This document shows, in pieces, positions 58,830-62,420 of a stretch of 64,000 nucleotides of DNA (positions are counted from its first letter, which is position 1; the number at the start of each line of letters is the position of its first letter). Made by a program: the position numbers and the translations under genes. This DNA comes from a virus. Taxonomy: Duplodnaviria; Caudoviricetes. The stretch lies in IMG/VR virus record IMGVR_UViG_3300034061_006011; one strand, written 5' to 3'. Under the pieces are notes generated by a model, which worked only from the letters and a program-made list of their open reading frames with translations, was not told the DNA's origin and made no database searches.

Positions 58830-59162
58830 ATGAAAAACTTTTATGAATGGTTAGAAGAGCGTGATGCTGAAATGCTTAATGAGGCTAAGAAGCCTTATAA
58901 GGGATATAATGCAAAGAAGAACCATCCAGAAGGTGGATTAAAACCATCTTATGCTAAGAAACTTGGTATTCATGCTGGGATTGAAACCAAACGTGAAGCT
59001 GAACGTAAGGGTGGCGTTAAGAAGATGTCAAAGAAGACTCAAGCAAGAAGAAAGTCATTCTGTGCAAGGATGAAGGGCATGAAGAAGAAACTTACAAGCA
59101 AAAAAGTTGCAAATGATCCAAAGAGCAAAATCAATGCTGCTTTAAGAGTATGGAAGTGCTAA
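58830..59162 (+). CDS. tagged basic protein with T4-like/cyanophage C-terminal motif (DUF6321-like)
   Basis: MKNFYEWLEE; RRKSFCARMKGMKKKLTS...DPKSKINAALRVWKC. Confidence 0.75.
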   Translation: MKNFYEWLEERDAEMLNEAKKPYKGYNAKKNHPEGGLKPSYAKKLGIHAGIETKREAERKGGVKKMSKKTQARRKSFCARMKGMKKKLTSKKVANDPKSKINAALRVWKC

Positions 59163-61242
59163 ACTTGAGTAATCCAAAAACTATAAAAGTTATAATCTTT
59201 CCAGCAGAAGGAAAGATTCAGTTGTGAATTAGTTCTTGCGTATGAAATATGACTATTTTTTGTAAAAATCTTACAATAAAGAATGCCTCTGTTTGTGTAA
59301 GAGCTATCAAGTTTCCAAGAACGTGATGAAGCTTGGGATCTAAACATTTTATTATTTACCTTTCAAATAGTAGAATACTTCTGAGCTAGATTGGTGTAAC
59401 AACCACATTTGACAAGCACAATTTTTCCATGTGTATCTTGAAAATGGTGGATAATATCTTGGTTTAGAGTAATGCTGATTACCCCAAAGGGAAGAGGATT
59501 GTCTAGCAATCCACAGTGATCTAAAAAAATTAGGATTGTTAATAAACATGGCTTTAAATATTTTTACCCCAACATCTTGACGGAGATTGATAGCCAATTG
59601 AAAAAGGAGATCTAGTTCTTGACCAAGGCAAATCATTTTTTGTTTGCCAAGACCAACACTTTTCCGTAGACCAATGTCTTGAAAAGCACATTAGATTAGT
59701 AAAAGATCTAAAGTTAAGAGTTTTAAGAAGTCTCATGTTGTTTGTTCGCTCCTATTCCAATGCATAGAAAAGGCATGTCTCTTAGTCCAATGAAAAGAAC
59801 AAGGTTTGAACATAGACCAAGAACAAAACCAACTCATTGACCATAAATCGGATGTAGTTATCTGTCTTCTGAAATAAACAGAACTTGACCTACCAGAAGA
59901 CCAGCAGTAATTATCTGATACACTTTTAATACACACGTTCATTTTCTTTCCTCAACAAACAACTACTTCTAACACTATTGTTCCAATGAACAGATCTGTT
60001 TCTACCATGTACATGTGCATCATGAAATTGTAAACGACCATGATCAGATCTGCACAATACATCAAAACTAAATGTGTTAAAGGAATAAAATCCTTTAAAA
60101 GGGACACATGACATTACATTGTTTCTTTTAAAGATCATTATTCAAAGCTCCTCTGCCAGACTTTTGAATCTGGTGCTTGCTCATAAGTCCATTCACACCC
60201 ATTTGCTTCGATCATCACTATATGAGCAATGCTTTCCAATTCAGTCTGGTACTGATTAGCCTCAGCATGTTTTAAAGTTTCCTCGGCTTTTTCGAGAGCC
60301 TCATGTCGATCATTTGCAATCACATCGATTGTGTGTTTTTGCGTCGATGTAATCTTTACAGTGTACTTCATCGTGCTAACTCCTTTTAAAGATCATATCC
60401 TTCAAAAGTCATATCGTCCCAAGTGCGAGAAGCACAAGCAAATTGGACAAACGACCTACTAGATGAACCATCACAGGCACCAAAGCAAAAGACAAATCTG
60501 CCGTTCAATCTACTTACCCAAAAAGAATTTATTCTGAATATCATTATTTATCACCGTTAAACCAACAACAAGACTCACACATAGTTCTGGACCAAAAATT
60601 AGATCTGCATGTAGACTTCAAACTCGACCAAGAACTAGATCTAAACCAAGACCTAGACCTATGGGACCAAAATTTGGTCCAACATCTAGAAGGTTTATCA
60701 CAAAATGCTTTTAATGTCATATGCTTCTCCTCCAAGCCATAGAATAAGACGAAGACTTAGACCAAGAATTACACCGAGACCAATAATTAAACCAAACCGA
60801 ATAACAAGACCAATCACAATTAGAAGACCAAGACTTAGACCAAGTATTATTCCAAGACTTAGACCAAGAATTAGACCAGTCGCTTTTCCCAGCCCAACAT
60901 TGAGTCTGGGAAAAGACATTAGATTTAAGAATCATATGTTTTTACTCCAAGACTTAGAAAAAGCCCAAGCCCTAGACCTAGACCACGACCACGACATGGC
61001 GTTAGACCAAGACTTAGACTTAAAACCAGAACCAGAACCAGAACCAGAACCAGAGTAAAACACAGACCAACATTCAATCTGGGAAAAGCTATTATGTTTA
61101 AGAATCATATACTTTTACTCCAAGACTTAGAAAAAGACCAAGGAATAGACCAACACCAAGACCTAGAATTATTCCACCAAGACCAAGACCCCCATCGGTT
61201 GTCAGCAAAAGTTCTACAACAACATTCACCAGTTTTGAACAT
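59159..61242 (-). CDS. array of ten short, mostly Trp/Ser/Cys-rich ORFs: 59159-59347, 59352-59549, 59554-59736, 59733-59942, 59926-60138, 60386-60544, 60544-60720, 60717-60935, 60932-61108, 61105-61242
   Basis: 45-72 aa, mostly head-to-tail ATGA/TAATG overlaps; three not in ORF track. Confidence 0.65.
60138..60371 (-). CDS. small protein, DpnD/PcfM-like
   Basis: KYTVKIT...IDVIANDRHEALEKAE. Confidence 0.55.
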   Translation of the reverse strand: MKYTVKITSTQKHTIDVIANDRHEALEKAEETLKHAEANQYQTELESIAHIVMIEANGCEWTYEQAPDSKVWQRSFE

Positions 61243-61253
61243 ATATCACCTTA

Positions 61254-61466
61254 TCAGCCTTCTGATACCCATCCAGCTTCGCCTTCCTCTGTATCATATA
61301 CATTCTGGTTAATATAGGAGGTAGCCTCTTCTGCTGTCAAGAACAATTTACAATTGTTAGATGTAGCAAAATCTTCAGCCTGATTGAGATTTGGGAAAAC
61401 ATAATCCAACAATCGAAAGTCATTAAAGTTCTGACCCGATAAGAAGTAATATCTATTCATTTGCAT
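61254..61466 (-). CDS. hypothetical protein
   Basis: coupled to upstream ORF. Confidence 0.55.
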   Translation of the reverse strand: MQMNRYYFLSGQNFNDFRLLDYVFPNLNQAEDFATSNNCKLFLTAEEATSYINQNVYDTEEGEAGWVSEG

Positions 61467-61852
61467 CACCACCAGCTACTATAAAAAACATAAAGTCCAT
61501 CACCTATTGCTCGTTTAGCCTGATAAATAAAATCAATATCATTTTCAATTGATTTACTGTCAGGAGGATTATCACCGAAGAAAAACCCTTTTGTATTAGG
61601 AAGATTACCTTCTCTAACATTCTTCTCCAAATTTTCTAAATCTTCTAACGTAAGCATAACATAATCACAATTGAATTCTCCTATTCCACCTTTTTTATAA
61701 AACAAATCACTCATCCATCCATGAAGATCATGATGTTTGCGCCAGTAAAACAATTGATTCTTATCCAATCCTTCCACAAAAACTGGATTGATGTCTTTCA
61801 ATTCTATAACATCTTCTTTTTTAATTGAATAAACAAACATATCAAGTCCCAT
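61466..61852 (-). CDS. conserved phage protein (MGLD family)
   Basis: MGLDM, YWRKHHDLHGW, GFFFG, YSSWW. Confidence 0.8.
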   Translation of the reverse strand: MGLDMFVYSIKKEDVIELKDINPVFVEGLDKNQLFYWRKHHDLHGWMSDLFYKKGGIGEFNCDYVMLTLEDLENLEKNVREGNLPNTKGFFFGDNPPDSKSIENDIDFIYQAKRAIGDGLYVFYSSWW

Positions 61853-61861
61853 GAGATACTC

Positions 61862-62420
61862 CTATATTAAGCCATCACCATCCCAATACATAGACCAACG
61901 CCACGGAAGAGACCTAGTTATTTTTTTTCCAAAAATCGACCATGTAGAACGAACATGACGAAAAGAATCAATATCTCTCCAGTTTGACATCATTCTCGAT
62001 CCAGACCATTCTCTGGATCTAATAAATATATTTGATCTCATGATCATGTCATCACCTCTGCCACCATTATATCATAAAACTGATGAAAATCAATGTGATC
62101 ATTCATTAAATGACCAAGACGCAGAACAAATATGCTCATTGTGAACAGAGAAAATTGTAAATCCAGAATAAGAATAATGATTGTTCCATGATCTAGAAAT
62201 TGATATATCTCTAGACCAACACCAATTATTATGATTGCAAGAATTCGATCTAAGAATCATTGTAAGACCAACACCACCCAGAACAGATTTGACCACGATG
62301 GTGTTCAGAAAAAATGGTAAAACCAGAGAAAGAATAATCATCATTCCATGATCTAGAAATTGATATATTTTTAAACCAAAAATGATACATGTAATTGTTA
62401 GAATTTATTCTAGTAATCAT
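61862..62420 (-). CDS. three more W/S-rich ORFs: 61862-62047, 62099-62260, 62250-62420
   Basis: MI(M/L/T)R starts; last two share ISISRSWN..YS.SGFTIFS.H. Confidence 0.6.

Follow-up and report, generated by a model that had tools for sequence, protein, structure and literature searches.

An array of tryptophan- and serine-rich microgenes in a large lake phage and its kinship with an Sm-like gene module

What a run of thirteen tiny open reading frames (ORFs), laid almost end to end in the DNA of an uncultured large lake phage, might encode is the question raised by positions 59159-62420 of a 64,000-nucleotide (nt) stretch of IMG/VR record IMGVR_UViG_3300034061_006011 (Duplodnaviria; Caudoviricetes), referred to throughout, at its full length, as the window. 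An earlier sequence-only reading had described about 13 such ORFs, rich in Trp and Ser and mostly coupled in translation, and had proposed a hypervariable peptide library that expands by duplicating the junction between one stop and the next start. Thirteen ATG-started ORFs of 45-72 amino acids (aa) are present, all of them, like every array feature described here, on the minus strand, and most are joined through ATGA stop-start overlaps; the starts used are those conserved in relatives. We are highly confident that these ORFs code in the Trp/Ser frame and that the family assignment set out below is correct. The best explanation overall, held with moderate confidence, is that they form a coding microgene array, an amplified version of an Sm-linked module, whose peptides would act with an Sm-like ring on RNA.

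The coding frame needed testing because the TGGTCT repeats of the array also open a +1 frame rich in Gly and Leu. A 128-aa gene lying within the array was used as an anchor and retrieved 16 related viral contigs, of which nine (84-91% identity) are syntenic with the array. In all syntenic relatives examined the Trp/Ser frame is open, ATG-started and ATGA-coupled, and the -4 overlaps recur, in keeping with the coupling read from the window itself. Selection was summed over the 13 ORFs against four relatives (L002, L003, L004 and L006; such numbers denote retrieved loci). Differences at codon positions 1, 2 and 3 numbered 196, 188 and 308, and omega (dN/dS) stood at 0.37 for the Trp/Ser reading as opposed to 1.20 for Gly/Leu and 0.92 for the remaining sense frame; ordinary control genes scored 0.20. 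New in-frame stops numbered three, where random placement of the same substitutions would give 37.9, a result matched in 0 of 2000 simulations. Trp was conserved at 59 of 61 aligned positions (97%) at a nucleotide divergence of 21.7%, against a neutral value of 48% and 73% for Met, and two sets of more distant arrays retain it at 89% and 93%. Omega was 0.30 in the leader, 0.42 in the core and 0.30 in the tail, and about 40% of codons had no alignable counterpart in any given relative. Taken together, the omega, stop and Trp data argue that the genes are real and that Trp matters, while gene content is quick to turn over. Judging by these substitutions, selection is mainly on the open frame and on the Trp positions. 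The real translation argued for by the sequence-only reading is thus indicated on evolutionary grounds, with purifying selection in the Trp/Ser frame and that frame kept in homologous arrays. Its picture of freely diverging middles holds between paralogues but fails between orthologues, whose cores are constrained and whose Trp residues are near-invariant.

That the real products are instead hydrophobic peptides of the Gly/Leu +1 frame, or that both frames are used, is extremely improbable. Three minus-strand Gly/Leu ORFs (60698-60919, 60925-61077 and 61098-61229) are open in the window, where they overlap genes 4-6 of the array and resemble glycine-zipper membrane helices, and similar ORFs occur in L003 and L004. 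Yet this frame, besides its omega of 1.20, carries 75 stops in the relatives' aligned codons, which rules it out as a source of small hydrophobic membrane peptides, and 55-59 stops per ~700 codons in more distant arrays whose leaders begin MIRK. Its starts are GTG, TTG or absent and have no conserved ribosome-binding site, and it is open only where TGGTCT repeats open it. The Gly/Leu ORFs are a by-product of those repeats, not conserved and easily miscalled by annotation pipelines. Annotators should be warned that gene callers skip the Trp/Ser ORFs and that the hexamer repeats make the wrong frame plausible. A diversity-generating retroelement target was also considered and gained no support, as no reverse transcriptase family was found in a Pfam census of the window ORFs and orthologue differences are spread over all codon positions.

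The composition of the encoded peptides is distinctive, with 19.6% Ser and 8.5% Trp overall compared with 7.1% and 1.4% in the window's ordinary ORFs, and no other Trp/Ser-rich small ORF was found elsewhere in the 64 kilobases (kb). The richness claimed for the whole array does not extend to every member: four (60544-60386, 60138-59926, 59549-59352 and 59347-59159) are only weakly enriched in Trp and count as members through their position, leader or coupling. Within the window 43 of 53 Trp-Trp gaps are even, a figure reached by 0 of 2000 shuffles. Pooling 14 loci (153 distinct peptides), we find an excess of Trp-Trp spacings of 2, 4 and 6 (z = +7 to +14) and a deficit of odd ones; Ser occupies 42% of positions at odd offsets from Trp, and even offsets carry Trp (19%), Arg (14%), Gly (8%) and Lys (7%). 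The cores are thus degenerate (Ser-X)n repeats, X being mostly Trp, Arg, Lys or Gly, in which runs of SW, WS and SRS are present and interrupted. In this degenerate form the small ORFs show the alternation of Ser with Trp, Arg or Gly after a short leader, and their alignment contains no conserved stretch of 7-10 columns. Were the chain extended, this (Ser-X) alternation would align Trp and Arg side chains along a single face.

Ten of the 13 peptides have a net charge of +4 to +8 and Trp reaches 18%, so that they share the high Trp content and net positive charge of cationic Trp-rich antimicrobial-type peptides; aliphatic and acidic residues are scarce. No hydrophobic N-terminus and no other hydrophobic or signal segment is visible in the peptide sequences. 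An AlphaFold2 model of peptide 5, made with 21 paralogues, has a pLDDT of 55 and no secondary structure, which fits disorder and leaves the idea of a tryptophan-zipper hairpin without support. Searches of Pfam and PHROG with 10 peptides gave chance-level rows and no family, and the ESM Atlas gave no usable match to the peptides.

A possible partner for these peptides lies 5' of the array, on the same strand and with two genes between:

63319-63633, minus strand: Sm-fold protein gene, 104 aa, net acidic; 0.9 kb upstream of the array
62410-63244, minus strand: 110-aa and 157-aa genes, between the Sm-like gene and the array

The Sm-like protein has at least 180 homologues in metagenomes, but by sequence it matched no Pfam family at E <= 0.01, the LSM profile included, no PDB sequence at E <= 10, and nothing in a tblastn search of 50,697 phage records, no cultured phage with the gene being found. 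Its AlphaFold2 model (pLDDT 78) comprises a helix at residues 20-25 and five strands, that is, the N-terminal helix followed by a five-stranded bent beta-barrel by which Sm/LSm proteins are recognized. Every one of the 50 matches that Foldseek lists against the PDB is an Sm/LSm chain (target-normalised TM-scores 0.58-0.80). In P0135 (212 aa) the Sm-like domain is naturally duplicated in tandem within a single polypeptide, and its halves have diverged; this two-domain form fits a protein that may build rings. Fusions of Sm-like domain and peptide were not seen in a profile search that listed only the close clade, fused or longer forms not having been searched exhaustively. Among the flanking genes, a 476-aa gene has no relatives among viral contigs, and DNA matches to the phage collection were confined to a DUF6321 gene. 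We also observed that a DUF6745 gene and a gene of ~110 aa accompany the Sm-like gene and the arrays in varying order (56602-57189, 62912-63244 and 63665-63985 in the window; L017-L020, L046 and L049), the ~110-aa gene standing beside both the Sm-like and the DUF6745 genes in L017-L020 and L046. Both may belong to the same module, any kinship of the ~110-aa genes to the window's 110-aa gene being putative.

Arrays of this kind recur in other phages, as the sequence-only reading had suggested looking for. With the Sm-like protein alone as query, 25 viral loci were retrieved, and 14 of them carry 3-24 Trp/Ser ORFs on the same strand; behind its homologues in related phages stand 12-24 such genes. 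In several the array begins ~20 nt 3' of the Sm-like stop and its leaders read MIRK or MIRR; the Sm-like gene directly adjoins the array in L030-L039 and in L046, the latter retrieved through a peptide match and having its Sm-like gene just upstream. MILK-type arrays like that of the window occur in L020 and L041. The 5416-nt metagenome contig L048 is a single chain of at least 26 microprotein genes; its heads (S-x-L-[R/K]-C-W) and tails ([R/K]-S-x-[H/N]-W-S-x-x-I) were observed to be more conserved than those of the window copies. Relatives that share only the 128-aa anchor gene (40-51% identity) lack arrays.

An independent test came from scanning viral contigs for the DNA pattern (GGTCGN)5 only, which matched at least 120 contigs. 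An ATG ORF reading Ser-[Trp/Arg/Gly] contains the repeat at 56 loci, and 43 of these 56 have a same-strand ORF of the Sm-like family, as detected by profiles built from the window protein or from the family itself; in nine of the 13 exceptions the fetched stretch includes almost no upstream DNA. The commonest gap between microgene and Sm-like gene is -4 (16 loci). Remote homology between this upstream family and the window's Sm-like protein shows in HMM E-values as low as 8e-10, and hhalign aligns the two over 73 columns covering the Sm core (probability 88%, E 3e-6). Microgenes number one per module at 49 loci, two at six, and four at one (L066), whose tandem copies with the leader MIILKA represent an intermediate form. 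Because the modules are mostly single-copy and their partner is homologous, the window array is best regarded as a widespread two-gene module in an amplified and diverged form. On comparative evidence the module, a small acidic Sm-fold gene followed by one or more Ser-[Trp/Arg/Gly] microgenes, is widespread in uncultured phages.

Both forms share the homologous partner, small basic peptides with a short leader and (Ser-X)n register, and same-strand coupling. They differ in that the simple module usually carries one copy (four at most) of a near-pure dipeptide repeat directly behind the Sm-like gene, whereas the window holds 13 copies with Trp-anchored cores containing Cys, Asn and Phe, a leader of the type MI[L/R]K and ordinary genes interspersed. 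Instead of a 4-nt overlap with the Sm-like gene, the window array shows coupling to the 157-aa gene, whose stop is overlapped by the start of gene 1 for 11 nt, and coupling within itself. Copies number 13-26 in this phage clade, all diverged (12-26 in sister phages). A literature search found no description of such arrays or of a module of Sm-like and Ser-X microprotein genes, and the novel part of the window is the amplified, Trp-anchored, degenerate form together with its even-spacing rule.

If expressed, these ORFs represent a large class of phage microproteins that annotation has almost entirely missed: only six members were recovered from 1.8 billion representative proteins with a profile built on 21 peptides, L046 and L048 being among their contigs, in contrast to the simple-form DNA signature of the 120 or more contigs above. 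The consistent pairing with an Sm fold would point to an undescribed module of phage RNA biology, and the amplified arrays, each with 13-26 paralogues of conserved Trp and free spacers, offer natural variation that could reveal which features matter.

How might the two parts work together? The Sm-like proteins of both sets are acidic (net charge -1 to -8) and the peptides mostly carry +4 to +10; these opposite charges, the one-to-one coupling of the simple modules and the one-face register suggest that the peptides work with an Sm-like ring on RNA. Under this proposal the peptides would be produced early in infection, would join the ring as interchangeable basic, aromatic "tails in trans", and would contact RNA or an RNA-associated host factor. 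A role for the peptides in such Sm-linked RNA work is a tentative suggestion, possible rather than probable. Its most specific form, a two-part device in which an acidic Sm-like ring and 13-26 interchangeable disordered peptides use a Trp/Arg comb to select, sequester or condense host or phage RNAs early in infection, with amplification and turnover of the peptide genes tuning specificity, we regard as doubtful.

The proposal has a parallel in eukaryotic Sm/LSm proteins such as SmB, SmD1, SmD3 and LSm4, which have Arg-Gly-rich C-terminal tails. In both cases a Sm-fold ring is associated with a basic low-complexity segment of dipeptide repeats, but the eukaryotic tails are fused in cis and built of Arg-Gly, whereas here the segment is a separate Ser/Trp-rich product whose binding to a predicted ring is putative, and the Sm-like protein is acidic.

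The nearest published item is the group of LSm-like early proteins of T4-type phages: GoF, MotB.1 as well as Frd.2 are small proteins predicted to adopt an LSm-like fold and suspected of a part in mRNA stability (PMC12152347). No sequence relation between these and the window's Sm-like protein was detected, and the abstract and section headings of that paper name no partner microproteins (PMC12152347).

Several observations weigh against the Sm-linked explanation or against a purely protein-level one. The MIRK-type arrays, which are the more distant ones, have an overall omega of 0.65-0.8 with no third-position excess, so that, the open frame and Trp apart, these arrays are weakly constrained. 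Of the array's Ser codons 58% are TCT, against 26% in ordinary genes, a bias suggestive of recent slippage or of an additional constraint on the nucleotide sequence or RNA. Right after the Sm-like gene lies a strong hairpin (63263-63290; 10-12 pairs, T-runs on both strands) that is terminator-like in both directions, so that the window's Sm-like gene is separated from the array by this hairpin as well as by two genes. Sm-like genes without an array are found in L017/18, L033/34, L040 and L043-45, and the Sm-like protein therefore does not need one. L003 and L025 derive from a 225-kb contig whose main array stands ~50 kb from the Sm-like gene and on the opposite strand. A predicted complex of the Sm-like protein with peptide 5 scored 0.00 with no controls alongside, which counts neither for nor against binding.

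The codon bias bears on a different idea, that the RNA is the functional element, repeated UGGUCU-type hexamers offering the Sm-like ring, or some RNA-binding protein of the host, a binding platform or a sponge while translation mainly keeps the message covered and the peptides are by-products. Besides the preference for one Ser codon, all 21 of 21 TGGTCT hexamers stand in the Trp-Ser phase, the MIRK arrays have an omega near 0.7, and long runs in the (GGTCGN)n relatives show an invariant Ser wobble base, though the search pattern itself fixes that base. We nevertheless find the idea improbable. Third codon positions are the most changeable in the window lineage, where omega is low; Trp codons are conserved far beyond Met codons; array loci of 33-45% GC keep their amino acid composition with mixed Ser codons (AGY 6-25%); start codons, Shine-Dalgarno (SD) motifs and stop-start overlaps are maintained; and an Rfam search of the stretch gave zero matches, as a tRNA scan gave none.

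The distance between some arrays and the Sm-like gene would be expected if the peptides acted independently of it, as Trp-motif decoys or inhibitors of host proteins: a flexible Ser-rich chain whose Trp residues plug hydrophobic pockets, for example of a defence or RNA-decay factor, with an arms race driving amplification and turnover. Trp is indeed the single strongly conserved residue amid variable spacers, copy number and sequence change fast between close relatives, and the array sits in an early-type region of many small genes. Trp within Gly/Ser-rich disordered repeats is how the GW/WG "Ago hooks" of GW182/TNRC6 and of some plant-virus silencing suppressors (P38 and P1) bind the pockets of eukaryotic Argonaute. 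The likeness lies in a conserved Trp within variable, disordered sequence rich in small residues; Ago hooks, however, are segments of large proteins, and here the peptides are separate and keep a strict two-residue register. We know of no host target, PADLOC (run on the array neighbours), Pfam and PHROG gave no match, and strict coupling to the Sm-like gene in the single-copy modules would go unexplained. We therefore judge the decoy idea unlikely.

The same coupling can be read as that of a toxin and its antidote. The order of acidic gene first and basic gene second, with a 4-nt overlap, resembles type II toxin-antitoxin loci, the partners are oppositely charged, and cationic Trp-rich peptides are often active on membranes or nucleic acids, so that toxic basic peptides restrained by the acidic Sm-like protein might attach to nucleic acids or membranes, shutting the host down. 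A ratio of 13-26 toxins per antidote would be odd, though, arrays also occur away from the Sm-like gene, and the peptides lack any visible hydrophobic or signal segment; this alternative, too, strikes us as improbable.

Multiplied small genes whose head is constant and whose body varies also recall the precursors of ribosomally synthesized and post-translationally modified peptides (RiPPs), of which multi-copy families such as the prochlorosins have a conserved leader and a hypervariable core. The leader/core architecture and the many tandem copies suit that idea, and strings of the WSKSW type recall the darobactin core, but the enzyme would have to be encoded elsewhere. In accordance with the sequence-only reading, a Pfam search of the 10 neighbouring ORFs and of 70 others in the window revealed no peptide-modifying enzyme family, and none of these 80 ORFs matched radical-SAM, YcaO, lanthipeptide synthetase, P450, protease or exporter families. 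In addition, the accessory genes of the relatives' arrays vary from phage to phage, the "leader" spans only ~15 residues, and chaining by stop-start overlap sets the window apart from RiPP precursor families. We consider RiPP precursors very improbable, and a darobactin-like product was set aside on the Pfam census.

In the explanation we prefer, an amplified Sm-linked module, the array is a set of three-part genes: a short leader, a low-complexity core and, in the coupled members, a W-S-x-x-I end. Its members and the ordinary genes among them are as follows.

62250-62420, minus strand: gene 1, 56 aa, leader MITRIN; start kept in L002, L004 and L006
62099-62260, minus strand: gene 2, 53 aa, leader MILRSN; omega 0.20-0.67
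61862-62047, minus strand: gene 3, 61 aa, leader MIMRSN, net charge +6
61254-61852, minus strand: two ordinary genes within the array, 128 and 72 aa, the former being the synteny anchor
61105-61242, minus strand: gene 4, 45 aa with 8 Trp, opening a five-gene coupled block; omega 0.15-0.27
60932-61108, minus strand: gene 5, 58 aa, leader MILKHNSFSQIECWS; ATGA junctions with genes 4 and 6
60717-60935, minus strand: gene 6, 72 aa with 11 Trp and 21 Ser; repeat periods 6/12/18/24
60544-60720, minus strand: gene 7, 58 aa, leader MTLKAF, net charge +8
60386-60544, minus strand: gene 8, 52 aa, leader MIFRINSF, two Trp; omega 0.06 against L002
60138-60371, minus strand: ordinary 77-aa gene within the array, with a weak DpnD/PcfM-like match; omega 0.18-0.45
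59926-60138, minus strand: gene 9, 70 aa, leader MIFKRNN, Trp-poor; omega 0.09-0.46
59733-59942, minus strand: gene 10, 69 aa; omega 0.13-0.42
59554-59736, minus strand: gene 11, 60 aa, net charge +8; omega 0.39
59352-59549, minus strand: gene 12, 65 aa, starting at an internal ATG of a 94-aa ORF (59636-59352); omega 0.27
59159-59347, minus strand: gene 13, 62 aa, end of the run; omega 0.33

Successive array ORFs are spaced by -11, +51, +619, -4, -4, -4, -1, +247, -17, -4, +4 and +4 nt, the two large spacings containing the three ordinary genes. An SD-like motif stands 5-15 nt 5' of the ATG in 12 of the 13. Leaders follow the pattern M-I-[L/F/M/T]-[K/R]-x-N, with C-W-S near residue 14, over ~15 codons; the start ATGATNNTNARR (M-I-x-K/R) occurs seven times in 60.1-62.3 kb and 19 times window-wide on both strands, against 9.4 expected. 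Gene 2 is a paralogue of gene 1 (the 130-nt repeat D5, 75% identical).

How such genes multiply can be approached through their junctions, one of which the sequence-only reading had correctly described as repeated:

60924-60958, minus strand: junction copy 1, tail W-S-K-N-I with GGAG, then ATGA and the leader M-I-L-K
61097-61131, minus strand: junction copy 2, an exact match to copy 1
60385-60396, minus strand: vestigial leader ATGATCTTTAAA, open for 6 codons only; repeat D16

Two exact copies of the 35-nt junction stand against 0 expected by chance. They are the centres of 101-nt units (60890-60990 and 61063-61163; unit D4) that are 84% identical and cover the ~18 last codons of one ORF and the 15 first codons of the next. 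The tail codons TGG AGT provide a GGAG Shine-Dalgarno 9 nt 5' of the next ATG; because the codons of the W-S-x-x-I end thus carry both ribosome-binding site and ATGA restart, the chained overlaps would hand ribosomes from gene to gene. The exact junction pattern matched only three viral contigs. As the comparison of copies indicates, the junction is not a separate duplicating element, but a gene end plus the leader of the next gene, and the expansion by junction duplication proposed earlier gives way to another process. Between the 128-aa and 77-aa genes close relatives hold 2, 5, 6 or 8 copies, and such shifts in copy number are, on this alignment evidence, whole-gene gains and losses through recombination at shared gene ends. 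Cores show tandem-repeat periods of 6, 12, 18 and 24 nt and gene 5 of L002 has an in-frame insertion of 6 nt; from these periods and that difference, cores alter by slippage of 6, 12 or 18 nt.

The 12 nt of ATGATCTTTAAA are repeated in direct orientation where gene 9 begins (60127-60138). Between the two copies lies the ordinary 77-aa gene, whose ribosome-binding site is provided by the upstream, vestigial copy, and the pair resembles a scar left when a gene was inserted at an array junction. Relatives carry accessory genes inside their arrays (L002 8576-9154, L004 846-1373 and L003 6498-6941), among them a methyltransferase, a hexapeptide-repeat transferase and a weak Mom-like match, and since these differ from phage to phage the array region is a hot spot for gene insertion. 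PeSL-type modular cassettes in the early regions of T4-like phages, bounded by promoter-stem-loops, are comparable in that repeated short boundaries between small genes coincide with gene gain, loss and insertion, but here the repeated boundary is coding (gene end, ribosome-binding site and leader) instead of a promoter-stem-loop.

Two promoter-like sites, at 62093-62066 by gene 3 and at 61340-61311 by gene 4 (11 of 12 positions matched), are only suggestive because a promoter and terminator scan of the window was overall not above chance. Away from the array, positions 28000-34200 of the window have 42-45% GC inside a genome of 30-38% GC and contain few long ORFs; they include a (Thr-Ala)7 run in the ORF at 29358-28525 and a ParB-like gene at 32984-34153. 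A short element at ~29340-29450, whose translation includes FRILKCGWEE, recurs in three copies within 30338-30550.

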